A stretch of 36,339 nt of DNA, from NCBI GenBank assembly GCA_008632985.1, contig QPGO01000170.1:124001-160339 (forward strand). The letters are read 5' to 3'. Under the pieces are notes generated by a model, which did no database searches, had not been told where the DNA came from, and was given only the letters and a program-made list of their open reading frames with translations. Of this stretch, positions 7,235 to 28,600 are shown piece after piece. The translations under genes and the position numbers were made by a program. The stretch is from Psammoneis japonica. Taxonomy: Eukaryota. Each line of letters starts with the position of its first letter. Positions within the stretch are counted from its first letter, which is position 1.

Positions 7235-8243
7235 TCACACGCTCACTGTGTCGAAATTGTGGACTGGACATGCCATGTTCCTTTGATCCGAGTTCTTTTT
7301 GTCAGGCAAAGCTCGGTGCAACATTCTTGCATCAAAAACAAATGCAGTGCCTGCTTCTCCAACCAGCAATTGTTTTTCCAAACCCAACCTGACCAAGTGT
7401 TTTTTGCATTCCTTCTCATTCAATGTTGCCTCACAACCATCCAGCCATGTCTCAACTGCACCATTGTCCTCCATTGTGTCATCGAGGAACAGAAACATGG
7501 TGAAAATTTTGTCGCCAGGAAACAATTCTGTTTCCACGCAATCACAATGAATTTCCCCCTTTGACCAGAAGTTTGATGTTGAGCTTGAAAACTTGAAGCA
7601 GGGGCGTTTGCTGCTGTGTGCCGGGATGTCTTTCTGCATGAATCACCTGCTGGGGGAAAGCCAGGAATTGACCCCAACATTTTTCTGCCAACTCAATGCC
7701 TTCCGCCTTGTCCTTTTTGTCAATGATGAACTCACTGACAAAACGGTGTCCTTCCTTCTCTTGCTTGCTGCTTGGTGCCTTGTTTGCCAGGGTTGCAATC
7801 TTGTTGAACAGGGGTTGTGGTGTTTTGAATTTTTGCAAGCAGCCTTTTTTTCCTTCCTGGTGCACTCTTTCTTTGGACCCGGCCATCTTGCTCTTGACGA
7901 CATGAGATTTCATTTCACCCGGGTGTGCCAGTAACTTGCTGTGTTTCTGACATGATGTTGTCGGCCAATGGGCAAATTTCCAGCATCCGTCAACAGAACA
8001 CTTTTGCACCATTCTCTGAACATGCCGGCTCCACCAAATCAAATGGAACCCAGTCTTTTTTTTTAAGCAGAACAGACCCAATTCAGCGAAAGTCCGCATC
8101 CATTGCTGTGCAATGAGCATGGCTTTCTTGTGAAATCTGTGTTGCCAACGGCATCTGTTGGGTGCACGGCAGACGTTTTTTTCGTAAATGGTCCAGTGTG
8201 ATGTGATCTTCGTCCATCCTCTTTGCTGCATGATCTCATTCAA
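7235..8243 (-). pseudogene. PhyH-like 2OG-Fe(II) dioxygenase, frameshifted and hypermutated
   Basis: GEIHCD (HxD), TMFLFLDD..DNGAVETW, GEAGTAFVFDARMLHRA (distal His) and a downstream Arg in ORF 7235-7639. The N-terminal part probably lies in ORF 7542-8243, with a frameshift near 7560. Confidence 0.65.
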
Positions 8244-8435
8244 TGGGTCATCCCAGCTGTCTCAAAGCACAGAAAACAATTTGGTTGCACACTGTCTTGT
8301 CAGTGTTTTTGTGTGATGTTTTCATGTTGACACCGCGGCCAACACAAAGGAACAGCCACCATCCACCATTCATTCCGCACCAAAAACAAACTCTTTTAGA
8401 ACAATGTGTGCAATGAACAACTGCAAATGATGCTT

Positions 8436-8735
8436 CGGTGTCACTTTTTAATTGACACACCCACATGTCAACAGATCAATTTGGTGCCATTTTTTGTTGA
8501 TGCACTTGTCTGCCAACAGACCAATTTGGCACAACTTTTTCATTGTTGCACACATGTGTTGACATGTGTGTTTGGCATCACTTTTTTGTTGACACACCTG
8601 TCTGTCAACAGAGCAACTTGGTTTCACTTTTTTGTTTTGCACATGTGCGCCAACAGAAGAATTTGGTGTCACTTTTTTGTTGATGCACCTGTCTGTTGAC
8701 AGATCAATTTGGTGTCACTTTTTTGTTTGCACACT
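8436..8735. repeat. Degenerate tandem array, ~45-bp unit, ~6-7 copies
   Basis: Consensus approx. ttggtgtcacttttttgttgacacacctgtctgtcaacagatcaat, with an internal inverted pair TGTTGAC...GTCAACA. Confidence 0.85.
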
Positions 8736-9024
8736 GAACAAAAGCCAGTGCATTGTCGTGACATAAAGTGGATCTCCCGCAGCAAACCACATTCTCCCAA
8801 ATCTGGTCCAAGTCGCTGATCAACGCATTTTGAGCAGCAAACGGACAACGTTGGGGCAACTCTGTCTCTTGTCCTCCGCAGCCATGTCATTCCCTTTGTG
8901 AAACAATGACCTCAACATGATCCCACCCCAAAGAATGCCTCCCAATCCCTTGCCTGTTGTGCCACGTTGCTGAAATGGAGCTGACGAATCTCTTTTTTGT
9001 CCGGCGCATCGCACTTCTTTCCTG

Positions 9025-10544
9025 ATGACATTCCACCCAACTCAACCTGACATTGCTTTGCCACTGCCATGTCACAAAACAGCGTTGGCCAACATTCCAT
9101 CTGGCCGTTGTCCCCCATCGGTGCATCCAGCCCCGTTTGGCACAGAAAACAGCCTTGACACAAAATTGAGGCTGCATTGTTCTCCCACACGTTGGGTGAA
9201 CAAATGCGGTCACGTTCATTCATCACTCAAAAAAAGGGGTTTGACAGACCACTCAATCCGCGGCATTGTGCTGATGATGTTTGGTGCAAAAATCTTTGCG
9301 TTTGAGAGCAGTGGGAAGAGCAATGCATGCAACCCAAACCGCCTTGGTGAACTTGCAAAATGGCCGGCACATCCAAGCTACATTGGATTGGCTTTGAAGA
9401 GGGCTCCCAGAGCTGGCTCAACGAAAGAAAAAAAGGCATGCAGAAAAATCATTGATGTGCACTGCCTCCAAACCAAAAAATGCAAAAGATCTGTGGTGGT
9501 TCAGGTGAGGGATTGCATCTTGCGCACTGCTTCCATTTCCCATCTGTTCCTCACCCAACAAAATGCATGTTGATTTCTCCTAGAATGAAAGCAAAGCTAA
9601 AAGTCAAATGATTGCCACTGGTGTTGACTCCGGTGTGGAGGCTGCCCATGACTGTGACAATGACACAACTTGGGCAGAGACGGATGTCATGGATGACGAA
9701 CATCAAATTTTGACTGGGGCAGAGAGTGAAGAAGTGTTGCCAGCAAGGGATTGCATCTGTCGCACCACTTGCATTTCCCATCTGTTCCTTGCCTGACAAA
9801 ATGCATGTTGATGTCTCCTGGAATGAAAGCAAAGCTAAAAGTCAAACAATTGCCACCGGCATTGACTCAGGTGAGGAGGCTGCCCATGACTGTGACAACA
9901 ACACAACATGGGTGGAGACGGATGACATGGATGACAAATGTCAAATTTTGACTGGGCCAGAGAGTGAAGAATTGTTGCATGATGCTGGCAGATTGTTGAC
10001 AATTGGCATGGAAGTCGGTGGTGATTTAAATGGAAGTGACAAAGATGCGCGCAACAGCATTCAAACTCAATGCCTGCAGGATCTTGGATGTGATGTTTGC
10101 ACAATTGACAAGAAGACATGCGCTGTGCTTCCTCACTGAAGCACACAGAGTGCGATGTTCTAAGTTTGCACAGATCAGCGGAATGGAAGAGATCATCCAA
10201 AGAGACAAAGTTTGACCGCACTTGCTTTGACTGCGTGCATTCAAACCCAGCGCATCTCTTGGCTTCAGTTCTAAAGGGACCTTTTTTCCAAGATGCACTC
10301 AAGGAGCTGCTGCTGTTGCTGACGGAAAATGGGATTTTCTTCTTGCCTGCATGCAATCTTGCTTTTTCCAAATTTTGGGTCAAATGGAAGAAACAACACA
10401 TGTCGGAAGAGTGCCCAATTTGCTTCTTGCGTGAAGAGCAAGCACAGAACAAGGTCCCCATCCTTTGAGACAAGGCACAAGTTGACATCTCTGCCTGCGG
10501 AAAGTTTTGTGCAAGGGAAGAGTGCACAAAGGATCATGAGTTAA
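9025..10544 (+). pseudogene. Decayed multi-exon gene with duplicated acidic exon and possible C-terminal methyltransferase-fold domain
   Basis: Phase-0 introns 9505-9583 and 9743-9821 join ORF 9025 (...VVVQ) to two NESKAKSQ...ESEE exons. Downstream FDRTCFDC...LTENGIFFLP weakly resembles class I MTase beta4/beta5. Confidence 0.45.
9505..9978 (+). repeat. 238-bp tandem duplication of an intron+exon unit
   Basis: 9505-9742 aligns with 9743-9978 (gaatgaaagcaaagctaaaagtcaaa at 9583 and 9821). Many differences are TG<->CA swaps. Confidence 0.92.
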
Positions 10545-13157
10545 AACATGAAGAAGTGAAATGGCTCACACAACCAGGTGAAGCTGTGTTGGCGCATTTT
10601 CCAGATTTTGGAGGTCCAGTCAAATGCATCGGATTGGCCAGAAGAAGAAAGGACCCTTGCCATGTTCCAGTTTTCACCGGTGGCAACTGTGTGCATTGTC
10701 CAACATGCAGTCTCAAGAGACAGAGCATTTTCTGCAATGCCCATGTTGCAGGCCGGCTCCCATCCGGAATGCTGTGCAGTTTGATCTTGACTGCAAAGAT
10801 GCACCTGACTCTGCATGTGGAACAAAAAACAGCAAGAAAACCAAGGAAGAATCTCTCCTCCACCAAATCAAAAAGTGCAACGCCAATCTTGTCAGTTGTT
10901 GGAGGAAGAAGGGCCAACCACATGGGGCGGGTGGCAAGAACTGGGGTTTGTTGTCAATGCGTCCCAAAAGCCTTGGTGACAATTCCAACAACAAAAGAGA
11001 AGTCAAGCAAAAGTTCCACCTGAAACAACCTCGCCGGAAGTCCAACAAGCTGTCTGATGCGTTCGACAACAACATCCTTTTTGTTGAAAAACCAGGCAGG
11101 GAGGGAACGAGGTGTTCCCTCATCATCCACTTCAAGCTGCGTGCAATGCACATGGTGTGATGGGTCCAAATGCTTTAGAGCAAATGAGTCGGCACCTTCA
11201 ATGCAAGGCAGAGATTCTGCACTCGGGTGCCAACCACCCGCACCGGGCAAGTGATCCAACTCATCCATTTGTTTTGAACCCAGATGCAATGGAGGGAATC
11301 ACCAACAATGCTGTCTTCAGGTCACGCAAGTTTGACAAAAGAATTCTTGGACTCGGTTTGTCAACGCAGCTCAGAGCCATTGTTGAACAGGGGCTGAGCA
11401 GTGGGTCAGCACGAGAGTTTTTACTTGCTGCAAAGTTTGACCATTCATGTCGAGGCACTGTGCCAAAGATTTTGGCATGAATGGAGTGATTGCTCAAGGG
11501 TGGAGCCGCAATGGTGGATCAGGTGTTGCAAAGCCTGGAATGACAGAAAAGGAAAAAGACCTCTCTGCCAGGTGCAGACAGTGGATTTTGCAGCTGACCG
11601 TGATTTTGGTTCACGTCATGTGCCAAAAAGCTTTGCATGGAACACCAAGGTCTTCCCAAGGAGAAATGTTGGAGTGAAGATGAAGGTTGTCTGAGAAATG
11701 CCAAGCCTGGTTGGGTTGCCCAGAACAATTGCGAGGTGTGTTAAAGCTCAATGAGGCAGGATCTCACATTGCCGGTTTTCCTCTAAAACACTTTGACTCA
11801 GAAAATGAGCGGGAATTCCTCTTGGATGACATTGGCAACGGTGTTGTGTTCATTGATGATTGGCGGGGTTGCAACACTGGCAAAGATTTGGTGGATGAGC
11901 TGAGAAGGCATTCGGCACCCATCACGAACACAATGTTTGACCATCTGTTGCAAAACAGAGAGATCGTCGGAGTTCAGTTACAAAAGCTGCTGTTCAAGAC
12001 GGATTGTGAACATGCAAATGCCCCATTGGAACAACTGGAATCCCTGACAGATGGCTTCAACCTTTCCACAATGGAAAACACAGATGATGTTCAGTGCGCC
12101 ACCCAACACATTGGGGATCACCTTCAGTGATTTGACAGTGGCGACCATGAGGGCATGTTGGGATTGCTTGTTGATGAAGGCTCAGACAGAGACCTTCTCC
12201 TGGGATCACCCACAGCTGGTTCAATTTCACATTTCACTGTGAGGGGCATGTTGCTTTCCACCACAGAGACGAATTCGCGGCATTTGTGGGCATGGAATTC
12301 AATGGCGCACCTCTTGTTGCATTGAGGGAATCTGTGAAACCTGAAAACCAAGAATCTGTGAAGACTTTGTTGCAGAAAAATGAAGTGGGATTGTTGCGCC
12401 ACCAACTGGTGTTGATGATGAAGCAACTGAAGAACAACGGCAACATGAGCGGAACAACGTGTTCAATGTTGCAGAGATTTCAATGCATGGATCCTTTGTT
12501 GACCAACATTGAAGAGATGCAAATCTGCTGTGCATTCATTTCCAGTCAATTTGACACTCTGCAGGCAAAGGACACTGGCGGAAGTCACGAATCTGCCAGG
12601 GAACTTTTGTTTTGTCGAGAAGCCAGGAAGAACAAATCACCCAAGCAGTGGTTGCCAAGCAAGAGGTTGGGCGATGTGCGCGTGGCTTTGACGATCCAAT
12701 CGGCTTCCGCGATGGGACAAATCCCCCCTCAAAATGCGCAGTGGCATGCACATCCAAGGGCAACTCTGGATTTTGTCTCTTTGTCAGCATGTGTGTTGTC
12801 AGGAAGGAAGCACATGCGAGAGGTGAATGGATCTCCTTGTTGAAGGCAAGGGAAGTTGTTCAAAATGCAATTGAAGTTGCAAGAAAAAATGGCAGAAGAC
12901 CAACTTGGGCCAAATGTGACCAACTGGGCTGCAGGGAATGTCGATCAATGAACAACAAGTTGTGTGAGGATCCATGCCACCTCACATCTGGCGAGTGGGG
13001 TGTGTTGCCCGTTCCCTCTTTGGAACATTCGAACAAGTCGACAAGCGGTTTGTGGCCTGATGAATCAGAGCACAGGATTGAATGTTTTGTTGGTGACCAA
13101 TGGTGTGATTTTGTCAACTCATGTCAGTGTTTGCTCTTGAGTCAAGTCAAAGCATGA
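10545..13157 (+). pseudogene. Large decayed coding region, function unknown
   Basis: Consecutive protein-like plus-strand fragments (11687-12130, 12286-12843, 12612-13157) broken by TGA stops and frameshifts. No family recognised. Confidence 0.4.
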
Positions 13158-13400
13158 ATGGATGAAGCAGAAGGGTTTGTTCCAATTCCGAGAATCGAAA
13201 CTGAGCGGGACCAACCAGCACTTTTAGACAAATTAGCAAGATCTCACTGTTCGCTGCACTTGCTGATGGAAGGACCAACAAGGAGTGGAACCAACAGATG
13301 CTTTTAGATGGGTTGACACGCCTTCACAGCAAACTCATTAGAACACTGACAGAGTGCTTAAAAAAATTTACGAGCGTTTCCTTTTTCCCAAGGTGCGTTG

Positions 13401-14560
13401 TCATTTCTCTTCATCTCGCTTCCTGCGTTTGTCTGAGTGAAGCTGGAGCACTTTGTTGGACAGGAAATAATTTGGCCAGTCATTGTGTCTGTCTGCAACA
13501 AACAACAATGAGTTCGAGCATCCCGCTGCTTCAACATTGTCTCCATTGCAGTTGTTGGGAACCAGGACAGAGAAACCACCCGCTGTAATTGCGTCTCTGC
13601 CAGCATGCCAAAATTTTGGGACATGCAATGTCTTTGTCTGTTCCTTGCATGACTGTCCTGCGGCAAGTGGCGTTGTTCCGTCATCAGCCAGTGCAAAACC
13701 ATGGAGCACAAAAGGGTGCCTTTTTTTCTGACCGGTTCCCTCTTTGCACAAGACCCTGGGTGTGTCACACCACAACCCATTGTTGTTGCAATTGGGGTGT
13801 CCATGAATTAAAATCCCTTTCTCTGGCATGGCAAACTCCGAGCAAACAACAATTTCATCATGCTTGGTGGACAGTTCCTCCGTTGGCAACAACAAAAAAT
13901 GAAGCAGGGTGGAGTCCACTTCTGCAGTTTCCGGGACAACCCGGATCTTGTTGCTGCCTGAACACTGACAGCAAGTTTGGGCAGTTCTGTTCACAACAAA
14001 CAAGGGGTGCATCAATTTTCTTCAGAGGAAGATGCGCTTGCCTGGCCAACCATGGGATGGATGAGAGGGCTGCATGCCTTCTCGAGAACTGCCATGTCAT
14101 GCAAACGAACAACAAGTTGGTCCAAGAAATTGTCTGCACCCAAAGCAACCTGGCAAGTTTTTGCCGGAAGCTTGGCCCAGAACTTCAGGTGACTCTCTCC
14201 AGTCATGGCAGAGAAATTTGCAATCTGGCCACAAAGGAAAGAGTCGACAATGAGATGCAGCATAGAATGGAACTTGGTGGTCCGGAACAAACTGGTGTTC
14301 CTTGTGCGATGAAGGCAAACTTTTGTCTTGAACATGAGCAGGATGACGCGGCACTTGAAATCCACCTTTCCTGTTTTTTCATGGAGTCCCTTGCTGCAGA
14401 GACAAAACAAATGGAAAAGCAGCACATGATGCAACAAGTCCAACAATTCATCAACTCCACAATCGACGGATTTTCATGAAAGAGTCAGGAAGTTTGTTTT
14501 CCATTTCTGCACAAATGACAGTGCTTGGCAATTTTGACTTGGTGAGAAGAAAGTGCCATC
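13401..14560 (-). pseudogene. Plavaka-like transposase, C-terminal portion (left of the copia insertion)
   Basis: TKFHSMLHL...GQIANFSAMTGESHLKFWAKLPAKTCQ (14012-14446) and IHGHPNCNNNGLWCD (cf. HPNY...WYD) in ORF 13401-14015. Confidence 0.7.
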
Positions 14561-14565
14561 TGTCT
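14561..14565 (+). repeat. 5-bp target site duplication TGTCT (left copy; right copy 21609-21613)
   Basis: ccatc-TGTCT-tgacagg at the left end; ctgtca-TGTCT-gctc at the right end. Confidence 0.95.
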
Positions 14566-14841
14566 TGACAGGATTTGAACAGGATTTGGATGCGCGCGAA
14601 GCATCGCGCGCTGTTTAGTTTGCCGTGCACAGTTTTGTGTGCTTTAGTTCCGCGCGTTCACGCGCGATGTAGTTTGCTTTCGAGCCACAAGGCTCACAAG
14701 AACAATGACAGCAGCCCGATTATACCGACTTGCACGTCTTTCGGCTCCTGCAACGGTCTCTGAGCGGAGACTCATCTGCCATTTAGACAGCAGCAAGGAG
14801 TCATTGTTTGAATTCTTGCCATTTGCCTTCAATTTCTGTCA
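14566..14841 (+). repeat. 5' LTR (276 bp)
   Basis: Ungapped alignment to 21333-21608 with 12 mismatches; TG...CA ends with a 6-bp inverted terminus. Confidence 0.97.
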
Positions 14842-14858
14842 GATTGACAGTCTTGCTC
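14842..14858 (+). promoter_or_regulatory. Putative primer-binding site, half-tRNA type
   Basis: gattgacagtcttgctc directly follows the LTR. Its reverse complement GAGCAAGA-CTGTCAA-TC resembles an anticodon arm, and there is no TGG complement to a CCA end. Confidence 0.45.
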
Positions 14859-15715
14859 ATTGTCAACCCATTGAGCAACCGCCATCATCGTCGTTGATTT
14901 TCCAACGACGCTGTTTTTAATTCTGCGTGGACCTCCGTACATGTTCTACATGCATCGGCAAGTCTGCGCGCATTCAATGCCAGGGCATCGGCAGGAAGTT
15001 AACGTCACCGTCAAGTCTCCTCACCGCTGGACATCTGGATTGATCATGCTACCTTTGATCGCTGAAGACATACATTCAACGGTCACATCCAAGTCCATCC
15101 TTGATCCTCATCCCTTGATGTACCTGTTCACATCTTCACGGCCAAGAACCTGCACCCACTCTTCGGACTGCGGTTTTGCTGCCACTCTGCAAGCACACCG
15201 AGTCCATTGCACCTGATCTACCCCGGACCACTGGTGCTCTGCAGTTCCACTGGGTCCACGAGGACGACTGTGAGAGCAAGCAGCCGTGATTGCAGCCTGC
15301 GTTGGGGCGAGGGTGCTTTCCCGCGTTTGTTCGTTCGTCCACAGCGCCTGACGCCTACGTCAACTGGCCAGCCTGATCGGGAAATCCAACCGATGTAAAA
15401 TGAGAACGGTTCGGGGGTCTTGTCCACCTCTGGTCAGCTTACCTGCAGGGGTTTACAACCCGCTGCTCCGCTCGTAAGCAACCCAAAGCGCCACCAGCTG
15501 CGGGTTCGGACGTGCCGGCACAACTCTACGGACCGGATAGGAAGTTTAGCACTCAACAACGAACGGGATGACAAAGCCCGGCGACTTCTGATTTTTAAGA
15601 TAGTTCAAGATTTCAAGTCAAGTCTGTTTCAAGTCAAGTCCACTCTCACCCAAGTTTCGAGTCTACCTTCGCTTCCCAACCAGAATTGATTGTCCTGACA
15701 CCATTTTTGTCTACC

Positions 15716-18700
15716 ATGGTTCTCACTCGTCAGCAACAAACCGATGGTTTCGAGCACGTGGTTGGAACCGTGCTTGCCCAAGGTGCTGGGAGTCCTCTTC
15801 GTTTGGCTTTGGCCCAAGACGGCACGGACTCACATCAGGAACTATTCACGTTCATGCCGTCCCAAATCGACTCGCTTGAGTGCGACAACGGCACTAATGC
15901 AATCCCTTTGCCCCGTGGTTGTGAGAACATGTTAGCAGCACTGGTCAGTCTGTACATTGTTAAAGCACACAAAGGTCTTGACGTTGCCAACGACTCCTCT
16001 TTGTTCACGCATGACGAGTTCCTTGCCTGCCGCCTCAGCCCCGACTGCATGTCTTCTGTGTCCATCGGCAGCTCACCCCTTGCACCTCCACATGTCACCA
16101 ACCCGACCAAGGCACGCGACCCGGTGCGAGACTTCAAGCGAGGCATCAAGCGTGATCCCACCGCTTTCACGGCTCTCAAATCCGACAAGCAGTGGCACAC
16201 TTGGCACACCTCACTTGTGGCACAAGCCCGTGCCCAAGACGTCGAGTGCACTCTAGACTCGTCGTACAAACCGACCAGCCCCGAAGACAAACTGCTCTTT
16301 GCTGAACAGCAAAAGCACATGTTCGCCGTCTTCGAACGCATCCTTCTCACCGACAAGGGCAAGGCTCTCATTCGCGAAAATGTGGGGTCCTCTGACGCAC
16401 AGACCGTCCACCGCTCCTTGTCTGCACACGCGCTTGCCTCCACCCGTGCATCTGTCGAGTCCTCCACCCTGCTCACGCACCTCACCACCGCACGTCTTGG
16501 TGATGGCACTTGGAAAGGTCCGACCCACGGGTTCATCCTTCATTGGCAAGATCAGTTGCGCAAGTACGAGGCACTCATCCCCGCCAGCGACCACTTCTCT
16601 GAAGGACAGAAGCGCGTCATGCTCGAGAATGCCGTGCATCCTGTCGAGGAACTCCGTGCTGTCAAGAACCAAGCTGATCAGCATCGTACGCAGAGTGGCA
16701 AGAGCCTCACATGCGATCAATGCTGTGGCTTGCTCCTCTCCGCGGCAGCTCAGTGCGACAGCACGTTTCAACCCAAGACGACACCTCGAGCTCCCCGACG
16801 CGCCATGTGCGCACACGACGTCTGCTCCGAGGAACCGTCCGACGATGTGTTCTACGACATTGACAGCGACGTTGACGTCCTTCAAGCCAATGCTGCCTGC
16901 ACTCGTGGTCCCAGCCTCACCGGTGTCCAATGGAGACGTCTCCCTCCCGACCACCAACGGCTCTGGGATTCGTTGCCCGATTCCACCAAGGCGATCATCC
17001 TCGAGCACTCTCGTCCGCCTCCCCGCAACCCGCGAGCCAGTGACCACCATGAGTCTGTTATGGCCAACCTTCACGACCAACACCTTGGGAGTGACGGTGA
17101 TGTCAACTTGTCCAACACGACTCCTGCTGACTGTGGTGACCCCGCCACACATGTGGATGCCACTTCGGATGATCCCATCCTGGCGCACCTCACCAAGCGC
17201 AAGCCACTGCCACCCGGTGATCTGCAACGTCTGTTGTCTCCTAACCAAGCCCCCAATGCCAGTCGACCGGGGCCATCCGCCGCTTCCTCCACCCCGCCAG
17301 CTTCTGCAGATGACATGGAACTTAACGGCCGCACTTGCCGCCGCGTCAACAACCACAATGTCATTTGCTCTGCCTCTGCTCATCGCTCCACACGCACTGG
17401 CGCTCTAGTCGATCGTGGGGCCAACGGCGGCATTGCTGGCGACGACGTTCGCATCATTGCACGCACCTCTCGCCAAGTCGACGTTCAGGGCATCGACGAT
17501 CATCAATTGGTGGACATCCCCATTGTCACCGCTGGTGCCGTCATTGAGACCCAGCGTGGTCCCGTCATCGCCATCCTCCATCAGTGCGCATGCACGGGAA
17601 AGGGCAAGACCATCCACTCCTGCGGCCAGCTCGAATGGTGCAAACAGGATGTCAACGATCGCTCTGTCAAGGTGCCCAACGGCTTGCAACGCATTGCCAC
17701 TCCTGATGGCTGTGTCATCCCCATTGACATCAAGGCTGGCCTGCCTCATGTTGCCATGCGACCTTGCACTGACGCCGAATGGGACACCCTGCCCCATGTC
17801 ATCCTTGCCGGTGATGACACATGGGACCCTTCCGTCCTCGATCACTCTGTCACTGACGACGACCAGTGGTGCGACGCGATCTCTGATCCACAGGACGATC
17901 CCACTGCCAACCTGTTTGACGAATGCGGCAACTGCCGTCACCGTGTCATTGTCAACGAGACCATCTTGTCCGCTTCCTTGTCTGCCGATCACGCGTCCGC
18001 CCTCGATGATCACCTCATTCCGAACGACGACGTGTTCTACGAGTGTCATCTGCATGCGATTGACCCCACGGGCGATGACGTTCCACCTCCGGAGCGCACT
18101 GTAAAGCCCAAGGACCCCCCCTTCGAGTCTCTTCGGCCTTGCTTTGGCTTCCCACCTGCCGATGCGGTCCGTCGTACTTTTGACTGCACCACGCAGCACG
18201 CCCGCATGCCCGCCGGTACACACCTTCGCAAGGCCTGCAAATCACCCAACCCCGCCCTTAATGTGCACCGCCGCAACGAGCCCATCGCCACTGACACCGT
18301 TCATGCCGACACCCCGGCCGTCGACTCTGGTTGCACCAGCGCCCAACTGTTTGTTGGCACCGAGTCTACCGTCACTGACGTCTGCGGCACTGAGACGGAC
18401 AAAGAGTTTGTCAACACACTCGAGGATCAGATCCGTGAACGTGGTGCACCATCCAAACTCATTAGCGACCGTGCTCAAGTTGAGATCAGCAACAAAGTGC
18501 TCGGGATCCTACGCGCCCTCTTCATCTCCAGCTGGCAAAGTGAGCCTCACCAGCAACACCAAAACTTTGCCGAGCATCGATGCCAGACTGTGAAGCGCAT
18601 GGCGAACACTGTCATGGACCGTTTTGGTTCGCCCGCCCACACATGGCTGCTGGCGCTCATGTGCGTGTGCTTCATGCTCAACCATGCAGCATCCCCACGT

Positions 18701-21385
18701 CTCCACTGGCGCACGCCCCTCGAGACTCTCACTGGATCCACCCCGGACATCAGCCCATTGCTTCGCTTTCACTGGTGGGAACCAGTGTGCTTCCACCTCG
18801 ATGACTCCGATTGGCCGTCCGAATCTCGTGAGTTGCGTGGACGCTTCGTTGGCATTGCTGAGCACGTCGGCCACCAGATGACCTTCAAGATTCTATCTGA
18901 CGAGACTCAGAAGATCCTCTGCCGGTCCAACGTTCGCTCCGCCACCCCCGATCCTGCCGTTCGAAACCTGCGTCTTGATCCTCCTGATGGGGAGCCACCT
19001 GAACCCATCATCAAATCTCGCCATGACGACAACCCCGTCGATTCTCCTGATGGGGAGATCAGGACACCCAAGATGCCAGTTTTCGATCCGCAAGACATCA
19101 TTGGACGTACCTTCCTCATGCAGCCACAAGAGGATGGACAACGCCACAGAGCTCGCATCGTCAAGGCCGTCGAAGACCACGAATGGAAAGTGAACGGCAA
19201 TCCCGAGCTCACTAAGTTCGTCTGCTCTGTCAACAATGACGAATACGAGGAAGTCCTTGCCTGCAATGACATCATGAATCACATTGAGCAAGAAGACGAA
19301 GACACCACCATTTGGAAATTTCGACGCATCGTGTCACACGAAGGCCCTCTGAAGCCTCACGACCCAACCTGGAAAGGCTCAAGCTACAACATCATGCTTG
19401 AATGGGAAAGTGGGGAGATCACGTCCGAGCCTCTTGCCATCATCGCCAAGGACGACCCCGTCACCTGTGCCATCTATGCACGAGAGAACGGACTCCTCGA
19501 CACGGATGGATGGAAGCGGTTCCGCACCATCGCGAGGCGCCAAAAGAAGCTATTTCGCATGGCCAACCAAGCCAAGCTTCGCTCCTTCCGCACTGCACCT
19601 CGCCACAAGTGCGGATGCGAAGTTCCCCGGAACTACAAACACGCCATGTCACTAGACGAACACAACGGCAACCGCAAGTGGGGAGACGCAACTAATCTCG
19701 AGATGGACCAACTCGACGAATACGAAGTCTTCCATGACTGCGGGCCCTTCAAGTCTTCCACTCCTCCTGCGGGACACAAGAAGATCCGAGTCCACCTGGT
19801 GCACGACGTGAAACACGACGGTCGCCACAAGGCACGACTCGTAGCCGACGGGCACCTCACGGACGTACCTGTCGACAGTGTCCACTCCGGAGCAGTCTCC
19901 CTTCGTGGCCTTCGGCTGATGATTTTCCTGGCCGAACTCAACGAGCTGGAGACATGGGCCACCGACACTGGCAATGCCCACCTTGAAGCCACCACCAAGG
20001 AGAAGCTTTACATTGTAGCTGGACCCGAATTTGGCAAACTCGAAGGACACATCCTTGTCATCCACAAGGCACTGTATGGACTCCGCAGCTCCGGTCTCCG
20101 CTGGCACGAGCGCTTCGCCGACTGCCTGCGAGCTGAAGGCTTCTTCCCCTGCCGCGCCGAACCCGACATTTGGATGCGCAGGAACGGCGACCACTGTGAA
20201 TGCATTGCCGTTTATGTGGATGACCTCGCCATTGCCATGAAGGACCCTCAATCTTTCGTCGACACTCTCACGGAAAAGTGCAAGTTCAAGCTCAAGGGTG
20301 CGGGACCCATTGAGTTCCATCTGGGTTGCGACTTTTCCCGGGACCCCGACGGAACCTTGTGCCTGTCTCCGCGCAAGCACATCGAGCGCATGGTCGACAG
20401 CTGCGCCCGACTGTTTGGGGAGAAACCTGCCACCAATGCCCTGTCACCTCTAGAGAAGGGTGACCACCCCGAACTGGACACTTCCGAACTGCTGGGACCC
20501 GATGGCATTCACAAGTTCCAGTCTCTTGTTGGTTCACTCCAATGGGCAGTGTCCCTTGGTCGAATTGACATTGCCACGGCCGTCATGTCACTCTCTAGCT
20601 TCCGAGCTGCACCCCGTCAAGGCCACTTGGATCGTGCCAAACGCGTCTGTGGGTGCCTCTCCAAGATGCGACACGGTGCTCTCCGCGTTCGCACGGAAGA
20701 GCCCGACCATTCGGATCTCCCTGCTCCGGCCTACGAATGGATGCATTCCGTGCATGGTGAAGCAGAAGAGATGATCCCGAAGGACGCTCCACCGCCCCTT
20801 GGCAAGTTCGTCACTGCCACCCACTGCGTCGATGCAAACTTGCACCATTGCATGCTCACCGGACGCTCTGTCATGGGAATGCTCCACTTCCTCAACAAAT
20901 TCCCGGCTGATTGGTTCTCCAAGAAACAAGCCACCGTGGAGACTGCAACCTGCGGATCTGAATTTGTTGCCGCAAGGAATTGTGTTGAGCAGATTGTCGA
21001 CCTGCGCATCACCCTGCGCCACCTTGGCGTCCCGATCCGTAATGTCAGTCACATGTTCGGTGACAACAAGTCGGTTGTAGACAGTGCCACCATCCCGCAC
21101 TCCAAGTTACACAAGCGACACACCGCACTGTCGTTCCACCGTGTGCGTGAGGCAATTGCCTCTGGTTGCCTTGAGTTCCACTTCATCGAAGGCTCCCGCA
21201 ACCCTGCTGACATTCTCAGCAAGCATTGGGGTTGCTCCCAAATCTGGGACCTTCTCCGCCCCCTCATGTTCTGGAACTTCATTCCATCCGAAGTCGAATC
21301 TGTTTCTGTGGCTCCTCAAGCAAACTGGGGAGTGACAGGATTTGAACAGGATTTGGATGCGCGCGAAGCATCGCGCGCTGTTTAG
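15716..21385 (+). CDS. Copia Gag-Pol polyprotein (open frame, missense-riddled)
   Basis: ATG at 15716 (MVLTRQ). Protease LVDRGANGG (~17405); integrase ATDTV / ISDRAQVE / QNFAE (~18285-18575); RT KARLVADGH, KALYGL, YVDD (~19830-20225); RNase H VDAN, GSEF, FGDN, NPADILSK (~20830-21225). Confidence 0.95.
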   Translation: MVLTRQQQTDGFEHVVGTVLAQGAGSPLRLALAQDGTDSHQELFTFMPSQIDSLECDNGTNAIPLPRGCENMLAALVSLYIVKAHKGLDVANDSSLFTHDEFLACRLSPDCMSSVSIGSSPLAPPHVTNPTKARDPVRDFKRGIKRDPTAFTALKSDKQWHTWHTSLVAQARAQDVECTLDSSYKPTSPEDKLLFAEQQKHMFAVFERILLTDKGKALIRENVGSSDAQTVHRSLSAHALASTRASVESSTLLTHLTTARLGDGTWKGPTHGFILHWQDQLRKYEALIPASDHFSEGQKRVMLENAVHPVEELRAVKNQADQHRTQSGKSLTCDQCCGLLLSAAAQCDSTFQPKTTPRAPRRAMCAHDVCSEEPSDDVFYDIDSDVDVLQANAACTRGPSLTGVQWRRLPPDHQRLWDSLPDSTKAIILEHSRPPPRNPRASDHHESVMANLHDQHLGSDGDVNLSNTTPADCGDPATHVDATSDDPILAHLTKRKPLPPGDLQRLLSPNQAPNASRPGPSAASSTPPASADDMELNGRTCRRVNNHNVICSASAHRSTRTGALVDRGANGGIAGDDVRIIARTSRQVDVQGIDDHQLVDIPIVTAGAVIETQRGPVIAILHQCACTGKGKTIHSCGQLEWCKQDVNDRSVKVPNGLQRIATPDGCVIPIDIKAGLPHVAMRPCTDAEWDTLPHVILAGDDTWDPSVLDHSVTDDDQWCDAISDPQDDPTANLFDECGNCRHRVIVNETILSASLSADHASALDDHLIPNDDVFYECHLHAIDPTGDDVPPPERTVKPKDPPFESLRPCFGFPPADAVRRTFDCTTQHARMPAGTHLRKACKSPNPALNVHRRNEPIATDTVHADTPAVDSGCTSAQLFVGTESTVTDVCGTETDKEFVNTLEDQIRERGAPSKLISDRAQVEISNKVLGILRALFISSWQSEPHQQHQNFAEHRCQTVKRMANTVMDRFGSPAHTWLLALMCVCFMLNHAASPRLHWRTPLETLTGSTPDISPLLRFHWWEPVCFHLDDSDWPSESRELRGRFVGIAEHVGHQMTFKILSDETQKILCRSNVRSATPDPAVRNLRLDPPDGEPPEPIIKSRHDDNPVDSPDGEIRTPKMPVFDPQDIIGRTFLMQPQEDGQRHRARIVKAVEDHEWKVNGNPELTKFVCSVNNDEYEEVLACNDIMNHIEQEDEDTTIWKFRRIVSHEGPLKPHDPTWKGSSYNIMLEWESGEITSEPLAIIAKDDPVTCAIYARENGLLDTDGWKRFRTIARRQKKLFRMANQAKLRSFRTAPRHKCGCEVPRNYKHAMSLDEHNGNRKWGDATNLEMDQLDEYEVFHDCGPFKSSTPPAGHKKIRVHLVHDVKHDGRHKARLVADGHLTDVPVDSVHSGAVSLRGLRLMIFLAELNELETWATDTGNAHLEATTKEKLYIVAGPEFGKLEGHILVIHKALYGLRSSGLRWHERFADCLRAEGFFPCRAEPDIWMRRNGDHCECIAVYVDDLAIAMKDPQSFVDTLTEKCKFKLKGAGPIEFHLGCDFSRDPDGTLCLSPRKHIERMVDSCARLFGEKPATNALSPLEKGDHPELDTSELLGPDGIHKFQSLVGSLQWAVSLGRIDIATAVMSLSSFRAAPRQGHLDRAKRVCGCLSKMRHGALRVRTEEPDHSDLPAPAYEWMHSVHGEAEEMIPKDAPPPLGKFVTATHCVDANLHHCMLTGRSVMGMLHFLNKFPADWFSKKQATVETATCGSEFVAARNCVEQIVDLRITLRHLGVPIRNVSHMFGDNKSVVDSATIPHSKLHKRHTALSFHRVREAIASGCLEFHFIEGSRNPADILSKHWGCSQIWDLLRPLMFWNFIPSEVESVSVAPQANWGVTGFEQDLDAREASRAV
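21322..21332 (+). promoter_or_regulatory. Polypurine tract
   Basis: aaactGGGGAG directly abuts the TG of the 3' LTR. Confidence 0.7.
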
Positions 21386-21608
21386 TTCACCGCGCACAGT
21401 TTTGTGTGCTTTAGTTCCGCGCGTTCACGCGCGATGTAGTTTGCTTTCGAGCCACAAGGCTCACAAGAATAACAACAGTAGCCCGATCATGCCGACTTAC
21501 ACGTCTTTCGGCTCCTGCAACGGTCTCTGAGCGGAGACTCATCTGCTGTTTAGACAGCAGCAAGGAGTCATTGTTTGAATTCTTGCCATTTGCCTTCAAT
21601 TTCTGTCA
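21333..21608 (+). repeat. 3' LTR (276 bp)
   Basis: Matches 14566-14841 at offset 6767. Confidence 0.97.
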
Positions 21609-21613
21609 TGTCT

Positions 21614-24601
21614 GCTCACCTTGCAAAGTTGTCCCGATCATCCGCCAAACCAACGACAAGACCATGTGGTCCGGGCATCAACAATTGATCAGGTGAAGTC
21701 TCAACAGCCCGTTGGTTCCGTCTCAATGATTTGGTTTCATCCCATGCAATCTTCTGGCACAACAAAAAGTGACCATCATCCAGTTGATTGGAAAATGGTT
21801 CCCAAAATTCAGAAAGGCCGTGACGATGCATCTGTTGCATCACACAGCAGGCGACATCCAACCATGTGCCTCTGGGAAGTGCAACAGGCACATTCTCATC
21901 AACCGGGCTTGTGTTTGTTTCACCAGTTTGTTCATTTGATGGTTCAACGGGATCAGGGTCCTCATCGTTGGGTCCACTTTCTGACAATTTGGTCAGTTGT
22001 TCTTCTTGTTGCTTCTTTCCTTTAAAGCCATCAGCCGTCTTTTTCTTTTTGCTGTCAAAGGATGGATCGCACCTTTTTTCCAGCAGTTTTCTGCCAGCGT
22101 GTGTGTGGCCAATGATGGCAAGTGCAAGAAGCTTGCCCACCTTCTCGTCACACACAAGTTGACTGAGTGTGGAAAGTCCCCCATCAACTCAAATTCGCGG
22201 ACAGTCACGTCTCTGACCAGGACGACAATGGGATGTGCAGAACAATTCAGATGCAATCTGGCCGCACTCCTCTTTCTGTTTGGCAGACATGTCTCCTGTT
22301 GTTGCCTCCATCATTTGAGGGACAATGCCCACCTCCAACACATGCATTGTGTCAGCAATGGTCATGCCAAATGCACCGCGTGGGCTGTCACCCATGCCAA
22401 GTGGAAAGTGAGCATTGTCCACCATGTGCTGTCCAAACACTTTCCTCAACATTTTGGAGCACACAGTCATTCGGCGAATGAGGGAGGAAGCCAGCTCAGT
22501 CTCGGCCTTTTTTTTTTGATGTCATTGCACGATGCTTCCGGGCAACGCTTTTGACATGCTGGTGCCAACAGCTGTTGTCATCCTCTGGATCTGGGCCCAA
22601 TGCAGCAACAGCGAGCAACTCTGTGAAAGCCTGGTCAAAGAATTGGCAGACATGGAGGGGATCATCAGAAAGGTGGGAGGGCACATGGCAGTTGTGAGAC
22701 AACCTCTTGGTCTTGCTTTGGCCCCATGTCTCTTCCACAAATGTGTTCTTGATTGAGGACATCCCCCAACAGGGAGTTGCAATGCATTGTGGCTCTGACA
22801 CAGCAGCATTGAGTGCCTGTCATTGCACGAACAATGGGTGGATTTGCCTGGCAATGAAGCAGACCACGGAGAACCTCCTTGAGAATGTGGTGGCAGTTGG
22901 CAACAACAAGGCACCCAAGCTTGTCTTTCTTGCATTTCTTGTCCAAATTGGGTGTGAATCCAAGTGGATGCCAACAACGACAGTCGCGGCGTGTGTCCTC
23001 TCGAATCATGGCAAGTGAGTGCATTGCAGGCTCCATCCCATGAGGATTGACCGCATCAACTCCAGTCTTGTCCGGGCATTTGACAAGGTGAATGTGAAAG
23101 TCAGAGGCTGTTTCCTTGGCATTGGAGCAATGTTGTTGCCACTCGCCATCACCCATGTCTTGACTTTGAGTGGACAATTGCCAGTCACCAGGACAATCCA
23201 GGAACTGCATCTCAACACTGTCAGCCTGGCCAGCACTGGAACCCAAATCACCGTCAGCAGTGGGTGGCACACAAGGTGACCAGATGTCATTTGGATTGAC
23301 CTGCAACTTGGAAAGATCACGGAACACTGGCTTGGCAAAGAGATCCTGCAAGGTCTTGGTGAAACTGCAAACTGGGAAAGGTGGGGAGTGACAACATTTT
23401 GGTCCATCCTTCTGTTGCTGCATTGGATTGTTGCATTCAAGCATCACAACAGCAGTGCGGGGGAGAGGAACATTGGGAAATGGCCCCAGGAGTTGCTTCA
23501 TTGCCACGGTGGTTGTGATGGGGGCTTTGACACATCCAGTCTTTTTTCTGCATGCTCTTCATGCTAAATTCTCATCACTTTGTCAATGAAGTCAATTGCG
23601 ACACCTGACCGATGACATGAATGATGCAAATGCACTGTGGGTGCAATGCTGGGTGAGTTGACTGGAGGTGCATCAAAGTCCTCATTGGGTGCAACATCAT
23701 GCACTGGGCCAAGAGGATTGTGTTGATTGAAGGAAGAAACAGGCTCTTCCATTGGACGGGAAATTGAGGGGGGCCCAGAACTGCCATTGAGATGGTCAGC
23801 TCCAATGAACTCGGGGACATCCACAGGACTGTCCTCTCCAAGGGCAGACACGCCATTGTCTGCAAACAAAACAAATTGGCGGGCATTTTGGGAGGCTGCA
23901 CTGGCAGCAGCAATGTTGGCGGCTAAACGCAATTGACCAGACCGTCTGATGGAGGGTGGGCGCAGTCCATTTCCGGCAGAGGGAGGGCAAGCTGGAGAAG
24001 AATTGTCCGATGGTGTGGGAGGAGATGGAGCTGGATTCCAAAGGACTTTGGGGAGGGGAGGAGGGGGTTTGTCATCGGCAAAACCAAACCCAGCAGGATC
24101 GTCATGGTCGTCCAGTGATTCATCATCTGCAGGGGGGAGTGCATTTGTGGCATTGGAAGATGCGGCATGCCGGCAAAGGGACATTTCCTCCTTTTTGCGG
24201 CAGGGCAAGTGCTTCTGTAGATGAAGGGCGATGTTGGAAAAGGGGACACGGCAATGGGGGCATTTGGGTTTGTTGGTGTTGGACCCAAGGGAGCCAACGG
24301 AGGCGGAATCCAGAGGATGAGAGGAAAGAGATGTTCTGCCGCATGGGGAAGACAATTGGGTTGCATGGCGCAACTGTGTCAATGGGGGATGAAGGCCAAA
24401 TGCAGCAGCACAGTGCCGAGATGGGTGACACTGCACATTGTTTTTGGAGTCAAATCCACATTGTCTGCAACGAGGACAACTGAAAGACTTGGTGGAAACG
24501 GCAGAACGGAGGCAGTTAGTTCTGATGTGCCTGCTGAGACCACGTTCGGAAAAGAAGCCAGTTTGTTTGCACCATGGACAAACAAGACCATCAGACAACA
24601 T
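21614..24601 (-). pseudogene. Plavaka-like transposase, N-terminal and core portion with C2H2-type zinc fingers
   Basis: ATG at 24601 (MLSDGLVCPWC...LSRH; CPRC; CPHC...LQKH). Core motifs PDKTGVDAVNPHGMEPAMHSL...WHPLGFTPNL, NCHHILKEVL, LLGD...ICG, VDNAHFPLGMGDSPRGAFGMTIADTMHVLEVGI. Several stops and frameshifts. Confidence 0.75.
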
Positions 24602-25189
24602 GGTCGATGTGCAGAGAAAAAGGAGTTGAGAAGAGAGTCGAAAGGAAACAGCATGTGCAGCAACAATCACTTGGGGATTTGGTGAGGGCAGAAACATGCA
24701 AAGAGAAACAATGTGCAATCAAGGGGGGAAGGCGTTGTGGACAGACGGGATGGAAGGATGGAAGGGGCAGGGAGAGAAAATTTAGAAGACAAGCAGAACC
24801 CACCTTTGCGAACACATGCGGCGATTTTGATCCAGAAAGTTGATTGACACACAATCCAGAAATTAACACAGAATTGAATGAACACACAAGGCTTGTCAGA
24901 TGGGGGGGTGAACAGTTGAATTGAGGAACACAGATGTTTGTTGTTGAACATTTCACAAATGCTGACTTGACAAATCAGCACGATCTTGGATTGAAGGGAG
25001 AGAATGTTGGGTTTTGTTTAAAGAAATCTTGACAGCCAGTGCAACACCTGGATCATTGGTGTCCCAGATGTCACAGAGAGTTCTGCCTGGAGCTGGGGCA
25101 TGCCAACCCATTTGCCACTGCTCAATGCTGGCGCGTGCAAGGCAAAACCACCTCTTCTTGATGTGCACACCCAGCCAGTGGCTGGAGCC

Positions 25190-25625
25190 AATGGCAAGAG
25201 AAGACACACTTCCCTTGCTCCCTCAGCTTTGAGAGAGCACAGTTTCAATTGATCTGGTTTGTTCTCATGGGATCACAACAGCCTGCAGAAGCAGCGCTTG
25301 ATGGTGCTGATGCCATGTTGTGCCATTGTTTTCTCAAACAAGGCCCTGCAAGCAGAGGCAATCTTGCTGATTCATTCACAGCCTGATGTTTCAGTGCAGA
25401 GCTTGCAAGCAGAATTCTGGTGTGGGTGCAACATCACACACAGCCAGTCCTGCCTGAAGCTGGAGCATGTCAACCTCTTTTTGGCAGCTGCTCAATGCCA
25501 ACATCATGTGCAAGGCTCACACAGCCTCTTTGTGCATTCAGCGGGGTGAGCCAGTGACAAGAATGCACACACTTCTGTTGCTCCTTCAGCTTTGAAAGGG
25601 CACAATTTCCATTCATCTGGTGTGT
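25190..25625 (-). repeat. Internal repeat pair (~60 bp core, ~363 bp apart) in decayed coding-like DNA
   Basis: KLCSLKAEGAREVC (~25205-25248) vs KLCPFKAEGATEVC (~25567-25610), with matching DNA. Confidence 0.6.
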
Positions 25626-28600
25626 CCTCAGGGGGCAGTTGGCAAAAGCACTTTGGGGAGAATGCAATGAGTTTGCCAGCAGGCAAGACAGATGCCCGCA
25701 TGAGAGCAGGAGGTGGGTGCAGTCTTTGGTCATGAGAGAGACAGCCCAACAGATGCAAGACTTTGTGGTCAATCAGAACACTGAAAATGCAATTTGGCAA
25801 CAAACAGTTGAAAACACCACACATGAATGTTTGCACCACCCCAATTGAACAGGTGGCAGATCAAAATTTTTGCTGCCAGAAGTTTGTCAATTTTTCAAAA
25901 TGTGACAGAAATGCACAAAAATGTGACACAACATGAGAAGTGACAATGACAACCATGCAGGGATGAAAACAGCATCTGTGCTAATTTCAGGCATGCAGCA
26001 GCAACAATGTGAGCATGACAAGTTTGGCTGATGCAATGTTTTGTTCACTGGTGTCTTGACAACAATGACCCAAACAGGTGCACATCTTGTCGATTGCAGC
26101 TCAACACATCTGGCACATTTTGTCACATGGAAATCAATGAACAGTGTCACACCACATTTGTCTGCCCATCACCCATTTTGTTGCCTGGAATCCATGAGAA
26201 AGAGTTCCCACACTTTAAGATGAGTTGTGCAAGCTTGAGATCTAGGGCAGATCTAAGTTGTGCCACACAGTGCCCTGTTTTTTTTAGAGAGCACCTCAAG
26301 ATGTTCAAACAGAGTGCAAGAGTGCGGTGAGTGGCCCTTGGAAAGCAAAAAAACAGACCAAAATGAAAGCAGGGTGCCAAATTCACAAAAAACACAGATC
26401 TGTTTGCTCCATGATTTGGTGCCTGATGCATGGGCTCTCTTCCCCGCTGTGTTGCAAAAAAACCTGAGATCAGCCTTGCAACACCTGCCAGCATTGTCAA
26501 TTGTCTGCCTTTGATGTTTTTTTGTGCAGCACCATTCTTGAACATCTCAAGAGTTGTGTGGGGCAGGTGGATTTTCAAGAACTTCAAAAGCATCAGACCT
26601 GTTCCAGCTCCAGGTGTCCTGCACAGTGTGTGCAACCCATCACTGGCCCATTTTTGCATTTGGCACAATGAACTCGTCCTTCAAAATTGATTTCCTCCCT
26701 GAATTGAAGGGAGAGTGCATGCAAAACTTTTTTCTTTGTGTGCAGTCATCTTTCAATTTTTGAAATGATCAAGTTTGAAGGAGCTCAATGTGCCAAGCTG
26801 CACAGAAAATTTGCCTCTCACATGATGGAGGATTGCAGATCATTTGGGGCTCCTGGAACAGGCCATCAAGAGCTGTGGTCACACCACCAACTCTGTTGCC
26901 TGCTCAGATGTTCAGTGTCACACACAGCCCCACCTGGGGCCAGAATGCATCAAGAAAATGATTGGCAAGCACAAGCTGGGAAGTGTTGCCCAAATGTTTT
27001 GCTGCTTGTTGCTGGCTCTGCAGCAGCATTGGCCAGAGACAAAAGCCTGGTGGCACTTGACAGCATTGCTTGTGAAAGGTTGAGAGTTGCCAGCCAGACA
27101 CACACTTCAAGCTCTTCAGACAATGTCTGCTCTGTGGCAGCTGGAAGCAAACAATCCAAAACAGCAGTGACACAGAGATGTTGGAGCAGTTGGCCAACAG
27201 CTGGCACAGAAGCTTTTGCCAGGGTGATGCGCGAGAATTGCCACAATGTGGCCACAACTGCTGCCGCACTCAAGCTCACAAAGAAGAAGAAGACAACAAT
27301 GAGGAAGAGCAGAAAAGGATCCAATGAATGCACTGAAGCATGCACTCAAGGGGAAAGACACCAAAAGGCATCAAGGAGAGAGCAAAAGTGATGCCAAGTG
27401 CTTCATTGAGTGAGCATGGTGAAGTCAATGCACAGCACCTGTGAATCAAGAAGTCAGTCAGATGACACACACAAAAGAAACGCAAGATGAAGGGGTGGGA
27501 TCACCCAAAAATGTCTCACATGCTGGACCCTGAGATTGAGAGGCCACATTGACATGTGGGCATGGCATGTGAACATGACACAGTGTTGACAAGTCAGGCA
27601 CACATGAATGAGTGGTTTGCACATCTGGCTCAACAGATCCAAGCTGCTGTGTGCTGCTGCTCTCCCGAGTGCAGAGATCCCTTCAGAGCACAAGAGTGAG
27701 CACAGCCCCCAGAAAGCAAGTGGAGTGCAAGAAGCCATGAGAAAGCAGGTTGCCCAAGCAATTTGGCAGCTGGCTGGAAAGCTGCTGGCAGCAATGCATG
27801 TGACTCAAGCTCACACTCACTTGAAAAAAACAGCAGGAGCAACTGGAACCAGTGAGTTGTGAAGCTCTTTTGAATCCTGACATGATCTCACACCAGTGCA
27901 GTTGGGAGGTCTGCTGTCTGTTCAATGCCCAATTTGCACCACAACACTTGGTCTCTCTCCCTTCATTGCCAACCCACAGCAGGGAAAATGATCCTCAACA
28001 ATTGCACTTGCACTCAGCATGAAAAAATCTGCCCATCAACATTGTTGCGCAACTTGACAGAGTTTTGTTGCAGGCCCACTGACAGTGAAAGAAGAGTGCT
28101 GCTGCCTCAAGAATGGATTTGAGCTCAAGAATGATGTGGCTGTGGGGTGCAATGGCAGTCTTTGAAGCATCGGCTCATTTTGCCATGCATGACAGCCTGA
28201 CACCACACGCAGCCAGAGAACATGAATGAAGTGTGCCAGTCCAAAAAGGGCACCCACATCATGCAAAATGCAAATGACATCACATGTGTGCACACCTGAG
28301 AGAAGCCGCACCATGTCCACACAGGTTCAAGGTGCACACTTGTGTTGTCCACATCCTGAAGATTCGGCATTACAGGAGTTCCAGGTGGACACACACGTCA
28401 AGCTGGGCCGCGTCGACTCTTGCGAGGACTTGTTGATGCCCGTTCCTTGACCGCTTCTTTGAGATCACACACATTGTCAGGAATGGGATGAATCGATAAC
28501 CTGTTCACCGCGTAGAAATATTTGTTGGGGAGCCTGCACAGCAGTTATCGCAGGCCTGAGGGACCGCAACGGAGTCTTGAAACACCTGACACGTTAGACT

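Follow-up and report, generated by a model that had tools for sequence, protein, structure and literature searches.

TA dinucleotides are lost ahead of CpG from a young copia retrotransposon and the older repeats around it in the diatom Psammoneis japonica

The stretch of Psammoneis japonica DNA analysed here (the window; 36,339 nucleotides, GenBank assembly GCA_008632985.1, contig QPGO01000170.1, positions 124,001 to 160,339 of the forward strand) carries at 14566-21608 a young copia retrotransposon that is rich in CpG and poor in TA, inserted into older DNA that is poor in both, and it raises the question of whether TA is erased faster than, and separately from, the deamination of 5-methylcytosine (5mC) at CpG, as a preliminary description of the sequence had proposed. 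TA is lost first and CG next, both ending at a floor, and two chemistries running at two speeds probably answer to one targeting signal. The TA mutator looks like a targeted anti-transposon mutator that has been published only for one unrelated alga.

Judged by its sequence, the element is a CoDi-like Ty1/copia long terminal repeat (LTR) retrotransposon, with TG...CA LTRs that are 96% identical, a 5-bp target-site duplication and one gag-pol frame with an RVT_2 domain. A second contig (G000:C110), 99.5-99.9% like the flanks and read as the other haplotype of this 91-Mb assembly, has no copia and a single TGTCT, so the insertion is recent. The window, whose end coincides with the contig end, is laid out as follows, with rho denoting the composition-corrected ratio of observed to expected counts:
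1..1750, no strand: host-type control DNA, rho 0.47 for TA and 0.95 for CG
1751..14565, no strand: older TA-erased repeat mosaic, rho 0.06 for TA and 0.35 for CG, with 2001-4000 among the most CG-poor parts
14561..14565, plus strand: left target-site duplication TGTCT, present once at the empty site of G000:C110
14566..14841, plus strand: 5' LTR, 276 bp, CGCGCG intact at 14593-14598 and 14605-14610, one CpG lost at 14626
14794..15165, plus strand: TA-sparing zone from the comparison of sister copies, comprising the 3' end of the 5' LTR and the leader
15599..21385, plus strand: copia gag-pol frame without stops, 1928 codons from stop to stop, RVT_2 domain
21333..21608, plus strand: 3' LTR, differing from the 5' LTR at 12 places (11 TA-class and 1 CpG)
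21609..21613, plus strand: right target-site duplication TGTCT
21609..25100 (right end approximate), minus strand: older Plavaka-like DNA transposon, host of the copia insertion
25101..28250, no strand: oldest tier, now mostly single-copy besides short repeats, TA and CG near the floor
28251..36339, no strand: host-type control DNA, rho 0.58 for TA and 0.96 for CG

The contrast between the inside and the outside of 14566-21608 held after composition correction. In the copia, rho was 0.23 (block-bootstrap interval 0.17-0.29) for TA and 0.92 (0.87-0.97) for CG, compared with 0.06 (0.04-0.07) and 0.35 (0.31-0.39) in the old DNA on the left (1751-14565) and 0.03 (0.01-0.05) and 0.25 (0.18-0.30) in that on the right (21609-28250), and the intervals of the copia, the old flanks and the host-type DNA do not overlap. 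The composition had therefore been described correctly: the copia keeps its CpG (14 of 520 lost), including the CGCGCG runs, which are the same in both LTRs, it has TG or CA at 155 of 231 TA-class pairs, and the DNA around it is depleted of both dinucleotides. A host-like founder rho of ~0.62 for TA is implied by the 231 pairs. In the oldest DNA, rho is 0.03 for TA and 0.11 for CG, and the ratio of CG to CA plus TG is 0.026, with 0.037 expected if a weak CA-to-CG gain offsets CG loss; the TA that survive in old DNA (n = 63) include TTAA (16), CTAA (12) and TTAG (11).

Copies of the copia elsewhere in the genome show the direction of change. The window copy was set beside 19 full-length and 10 partial copies (n = 30 in all, taken from the 30 top-ranking of 40 that were scored out of 459 candidates; one tandem, partial locus, L062, was dropped). 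The TA-class pairs of these copies read TA 2280, TG 1931, CA 1277, CG 3 and other 17 times, which amounts to 3208 single transitions, 3 double ones and 17 other states, while the 520 CG-class pairs read CG 12181, TG 272, CA 237 and other 25 times, changing to TG and CA on both strands as expected of 5mC deamination in transposable elements. The polarity from TA to TG or CA is given independently, since tyrosines of outside relatives read as cysteine or histidine here: at 47 columns that are tyrosine in at least 70% of 120 such relatives, the window copy reads Cys 20 times, His 13, Tyr 9, Phe 4 and Trp once (all Phe, the Trp and a single His being fixed in the copia family), and other conserved residues are kept (G 70/72, R 61/63 and H 32/33). 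Because 209 of the 253 differences within 21 LTR pairs are TA-class (26 are CG and 18 other), the TA changes postdate insertion, and LTR-divergence dating inflates age many-fold in this genome, 83% of the differences being TA hits. The TG:CA ratio is not overdispersed across copies (chi2 24.1, 29 degrees of freedom), and per-copy TA loss spans 7-83%, a range in which age and activity are inseparable. The Plavaka-like DNA transposon is affected alike, which places the process at the level of DNA.

The rates of the two losses differ widely. In a fit to 173 TA and 480 CG sites past element position 600, with one little-changed copy as the reference, 19 copies had lost 63% of TA and 4.1% of CG, corresponding to hazards of 0.98 and 0.042 and to a ratio of 23 (95% interval 18-31). 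That TA loss is the faster and earlier one, as had been claimed, is borne out by three age tiers, namely the young copia, the Plavaka-like family and the oldest DNA. With a TA-rich Plavaka-like paralogue (L040; 62 TA and 122 CG pairs) as the standard, 15 close copies keep ~10% of TA and ~66% of CG and the window copy keeps 2 and 46 pairs, respectively; across 29 copies of this family, CG retention falls from ~0.6 to 0.26 with rising background divergence (correlation coefficient, -0.70). The background itself, 5 substitutions in 22 kb, amounts to a pairwise divergence of 2.3e-4 (0.7-5.3e-4). If the published Phaeodactylum mutation rate of 4.77e-10 is borrowed, the haplotypes would have split ~2.4e5 generations ago, and the TA hazard of 1.1 of the copy here would mean at least ~5e-6 hits per TA per generation. 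The TA rate is ~10^4 times the background, a figure derived from only 5 single-nucleotide polymorphisms in 22 kb. As a rough comparison on the borrowed rate, the per-TA rate would be near the ~1e-5 that we compute from counts in the main text on Bigelowiella natans (211 mutations, 6169 TpA, 3132 generations; bioRxiv 10.64898/2026.01.13.699255).

Both losses also separate the two haplotypes. Of the substitutions in old transposon DNA (13.8 kb, with 265 CG and 42 TA in the window), 15 are CG-type, 3 TA-type, 1 a TG/CA double and 3 of other kinds, to which comes one further, unclassified difference in 21609-22322; host DNA (8.1 kb, 429 CG, 330 TA) carries 0 TA or CG transitions and 2 transversions. 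Some of the CG-type changes are gains, since 2 of 5 polarised sites have CA in most paralogues. Relative to L082 and L083, CpG-type changes in 7317-14565 and 21609-28200 run at ~30 times (copies) to ~100 times (haplotypes) the background; such rates are high for passive 5mC decay, and part of them may be CA-to-CG gain.

The older DNA had further been credited with a gain of TGA stops. TGA did rise slightly, with TGC, TGT and TGG rising more: its rho, 1.20 and 1.37 in the host DNA, reaches 1.42 in the copia and 1.41 and 1.55 in the two stretches of old DNA. Its prominence among the stops is owed chiefly to the disappearance of TAA and TAG. A tally of 127 TGA trinucleotides between 21700 and 24700 gave 88 that are invariant, 21 derived from CG and 18 from TA. 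The gain is weak, and about half of it (18 of the 39 non-invariant) is of TA or TAA origin. Six in-frame stops occur in the copia copies, each a TGA at a CG-containing codon; hence TA erasure itself creates no stops, and a stop-free frame in a dead element is no proof of activity.

A competing-risk fit to the A strand revealed the context of TA loss, with relative rates at position +1 of 2.7 for C, 2.5 for T, 1.2 for G and 1 for A, of ~2 for non-A at +2 and of 0.4 for T at -3. With context included, the strand effect was 1.14 (0.93-1.30, 40 bootstraps); a strand bias was rejected, as context accounts for the raw 60:40 excess of TG. Away from TA, A-to-G singletons were rare at AA (48/18261, 0.26%), CA (37/24738, 0.15%) and GA (34/24480, 0.14%), and non-CpG C-to-T singletons (48 per 68426 site-copies) rarer still.

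We favour, with a probability of roughly 55%, the reading that adenine in DNA is deaminated to inosine and that this deamination is directed at silenced transposon chromatin. In the first clock, an enzyme, perhaps of the TadA/ADAT2 type, would convert the adenine of genomic 5'-TA(C/T) to inosine, at single sites and on either strand, following insertion; replication would fix the change as A:T to G:C, leaving TG or CA, and with its target gone the pair would take no second hit. This clock would strip ~60% of TA while CpG drops 4% and would disable the element through Tyr-to-Cys/His replacement without stops, which could serve as a defence. In the second clock, 5mC deamination following DNMT5-type methylation would yield the same TG and CA products ~20 times more slowly. 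Host genes would be passed over by both clocks, as would the promoter zone of young copies as long as it stays open. More tentatively, diatoms may possess a DNA adenine editor of natural origin, brought to its targets by the silencing mark (5mC or its chromatin), that would rewrite most TA of a new insertion in the course of a few hundred thousand generations and leave a lasting record of which parts of the element had been silenced, an open promoter zone among its features; such an A-to-G counterpart of repeat-induced point mutation (RIP), found in distantly related algae of the SAR group (stramenopiles, alveolates and Rhizaria), is possible rather than probable.

The genome contains an ADAT2-like gene (L113) with HAE, PCxxC and the N of FGCRNDRFGG, a position assigned by motif and by eye, as well as one TadA-like gene and two genes with the A_deamin (editase) domain (L114-L117; G000:C40 and C79); Atlas, applied to one exon of the second editase, returned nothing usable. 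A Tudor-DNMT-SNF2 (DNMT5-like) locus is present. C5-methyltransferase genes (L244-L246 and L266; G000:C301 and C297) also lie within TA-erased DNA of rho 0.07-0.10 for TA, probably carried there by a mobile element.

Among known systems, the nearest is the TpA-only A:T-to-G:C hypermutation that Mettrop et al. describe for integrated DNA of nucleocytoplasmic large DNA viruses and virophages in B. natans, which exceeds the background more than 1000-fold, for which ADAT2 is proposed, and which is accompanied by an enrichment of reverse transcriptase and DDE domains among TpA-poor genes (bioRxiv 10.64898/2026.01.13.699255). Shared with that main text are the change of TpA to TpG or CpA on both strands, almost exclusively by transition, after integration and within foreign or mobile DNA, and the presence in the genome of an ADAT2 homologue with HxE-PCxxC and Asn. 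B. natans differs in being a rhizarian, in having two viral inserts that are still TpA-rich and in a context given as the dinucleotide only, without a CpG comparison (the terms "CpG" and "diatom" are absent from the main text); here, erasure is near-complete, reaches LTR retrotransposons and DNA transposons, prefers TAC and TAT, spares a putative promoter zone and has a slower CpG decay alongside. For CG loss, DNMT5 methylation in Phaeodactylum, which targets transposable elements including CoDi copia (Hoguin et al., PMC9998398), would explain the second clock if the DNMT5-like locus here acts likewise, and the available text of that paper has no mention of deamination, leaving TA loss unaccounted for. 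The TadA-derived editor ABE8e is reported to place 94% of its genome-wide A-to-G/T-to-C off-targets at TA sites (PMC13225742); since it leaves the like, the clean TA transitions fit a TadA-fold DNA deaminase, although ABE8e is engineered and untargeted and the process here is natural and confined to transposon DNA. The literature yielded no report from a diatom or stramenopile and only the B. natans preprint, within a coverage that excluded subscription journals and bioRxiv supplements.

RIP of ascomycetes, by comparison, is a homology-triggered, premeiotic and RID-dependent C-to-T process that creates TpA. The likeness lies in transition hypermutation at a particular dinucleotide, by which repeats are disabled once inserted and genes are left alone; here, unlike in RIP, TpA is removed rather than created, and strand-coordinated runs are absent. 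Fungal RIP was rejected on the TpA depletion and on the low count of non-CpG C-to-T singletons given above.

Several observations weigh against the deamination reading or narrow it: (i) the damaged base is ambiguous, because A-to-G after T is the same in sequence as T-to-C before A; (ii) the genome shows no expansion of deaminases, those found being ordinary tRNA-editing types, none of the candidates has a tie to the process, the asparagine of ADAT2 is general to its family, and the C79 editase is common to many diatoms and has no other Pfam domains; (iii) cytosine methylation is suggested by the DNMT5-like locus only; (iv) TA and CG losses are not proportional across copies (chi2 49.7, 18 degrees of freedom), with a log-slope of 0.40 +/- 0.21, or 0.81 +/- 0.22 without L064, and L064 and L040 show a TA loss far below that expected from their CG loss; (v) the copies compared are those closest to the window copy, hence of a narrow age range; and (vi) some TA changes, a minor part, are inherited from source elements, as 48 of the 76 LTR sites changed in both LTRs share an allele (38.4 expected, p=0.0035).

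The two clocks could run as described with the lesion placed elsewhere, on thymine (5-hydroxymethyluracil, 5-formyluracil or an O4-alkyl-thymine pairing with G) or on N6-methyladenine that is deaminated or excised at TA. Such damage would give the same outcome in sequence, clean transitions in one dinucleotide, and the 27 DNA_methylase matches in the genome (C5-methyltransferase genes) would be in keeping with it. TadA-fold enzymes have a 3' preference, and the 5'-T, the preferred 3'-pyrimidine and the weak A-to-G at AA, CA and GA seen here suit such an enzyme better; Tet_JBP had no match in the genome, but its control was silent too, so that absence is not established. We consider this explanation unlikely, if a serious one.

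Deamination directed at silenced chromatin further predicts that the two losses share their targets, and on this point the separateness originally proposed stands for the chemistry, does not hold for time and place and probably fails for targeting. The chemistry differs because the polarity is opposite (A:T to G:C), CpG density has no effect on the TA site rate in any of six window sizes, and ~5 TA hits fall for each CG hit; it differs also because CpG-poor metagenome relatives keep their tyrosine codons and TA changes form no strand runs. The depletions, on the other hand, scale together in rank and not in rate: across 19 copies, TA hazard and private CG loss are correlated (Spearman 0.72, p=0.0005), as they are in the Plavaka-like family (0.56, p=0.0016). 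Within copies the coupling is weak (rho 0.10, p=0.012 in 150-bp bins; rho 0.07, p=0.12 in 300-bp bins), with an excess of TA loss within 30 bp of CG loss (p=0.015). Both losses end at host-gene boundaries, the host genes being spared, and both are lower in the 5' LTR than in the identical 3' LTR (TA, 91 hits against 145 over 13 sites and 19 copies, p=0.0017; CG, 2.5% vs 5.5%).

Next to the 5' LTR, a zone at element positions ~229-600 (~370 bp) is nearly untouched at TA in 10 of the 19 copies, fully hit in 5 and intermediate in 4; the window copy, with 17 of 23 leader TA lost, is one of the 5, and copies without the spared zone carry a heavier mutation load in the body as well (0.71 vs 0.57). 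Leader CG loss was 1/190 in TA-protected and 5/95 in TA-hit copies (p=0.017, for groups picked post hoc). The spared zone may preserve the trace of a promoter that was open, and because both clocks spare host genes and this zone, the TA mutator probably tracks the silencing mark. The copy here also lacks, at ~15130-15150 of the leader, ~45-50 bp that its sister copies carry.

That the TA and CG processes are wholly independent and co-vary through age alone is improbable in the face of these shared boundaries, LTR asymmetries and leader losses, even though age by itself would correlate two clocks across copies, coupling at the local scale is weak and loses significance in 300-bp bins, the leader comparison comprises 6 CG events in groups chosen after the data were viewed, and for the TA hypermutation of B. 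natans the main text of the preprint reports no CpG component. One copy, L064, retains 70% of its TA despite average CG loss. Two copies from two families, L040 and L074, lie in TA-rich surroundings and keep most of their TA, being either young or outside silenced chromatin. The TA level of the flanks does not predict a copy's TA loss. As for spreading, the two copy flanks searched were repeats themselves and no empty allele was found there; 25100-28200 is mostly single-copy today yet erased, and may formerly have been repeated.

A single cause has also to be weighed, in which T:G mismatches from 5mC deamination are repaired in patches by the error-prone polymerase eta, whose WA motif would draw mutations to nearby TA. 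The spectrum of this polymerase, known from the second phase of antibody hypermutation, is one of mixed transitions and transversions, a few-fold preference of TA over AA and strand-coordinated patches. The off-target order of AA over CA and GA agrees with it, as does the co-variation of TA and CG losses across copies and, weakly, within them; yet at TA-class pairs 17 non-transition states stand against 3208 single transitions, TA exceeds AA ~190-fold per adenine, strand-coordinated runs were not found at any of four distance classes (for example, 245/443 within 10 bp vs 239 expected), CpG density is without effect, and the CpG-poor relatives from elsewhere have intact tyrosine codons. This explanation is very improbable.

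The weakest alternative, an artefact in which long reads are miscalled where a base is modified, or the outcome of selection or of descent from a small number of master copies, can hardly be right, for although homopolymer indels in the assembly are long-read-like and some alleles are inherited, contigs of the public run X1 (possibly from the same sample) span 25042-31000 with 2 other letters, the separately assembled haplotype repeats the TG/CA states over ~14 kb of old DNA, and TG and CA both occur at most sites and between the LTRs of one copy. The miscall variant was rejected on those TA-poor states in X1 and the second haplotype. The X1 contigs cover 25042-26665 and 26652-31000 with one differing letter each, both at CpG-type sites and equal to the other haplotype; that they correct homopolymer indels of the assembly, such as occur at 30024-30208, suggests that X1 consists of short reads.

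Natural DNA adenine deamination as a genome defence has so far been described in one alga, in a preprint and without an enzyme. The diatom case adds thousands of scored sites, a TAC/TAT signature, a measure of TA loss against CpG decay and a spared, putative promoter zone, so that both the enzyme and its targeting could be tested in a lineage that has CRISPR and DNMT5 mutants; a native TA-specific DNA editor, if real, would be relevant to base editing. Another organism probably shares the TA process, judging by the sequence of a copia protein (P0109, ENA) in which 14 of the 47 conserved tyrosines are Cys or His, including that of the reverse transcriptase YVDD motif, and which is not from this genome (best match 65% among 150 scored of 764 candidates). 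Among metagenome relatives, 0 of 79 loci had rho below 0.49 for TA, with the limits that one search pattern includes Tyr and that the contigs often merge copies. Three of these 79 loci (L150, L166 and L195), relatives of CoDi-like copia, have a CpG rho of 0.15-0.24 with intact Tyr codons, so that the order of decay is reversed in other hosts.

The Plavaka name comes from the paralogue L040, on which Pfam gave E 4e-5 (below its cut-off) and Atlas 0.96; Pfam matched none of the open reading frames in the old DNA of the window. A young 391-bp element with inverted ends (L073:463-853) has more than 1000 candidate places in the genome at 97-99% identity, and the few differences among its copies are again mainly TA to TG or CA. 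In the host-type DNA, a 486-codon open reading frame (minus strand, 28773-30233) contains five degenerate repeats spaced 63 bp apart (29044-29412), and a 585-codon host frame at 30697-32454 has an FG-GAP repeat and a single weak database relative. Elsewhere in the genome, silicon transporter genes, which mark it as a diatom's, gave 24 matches, the best at ~695 bits.

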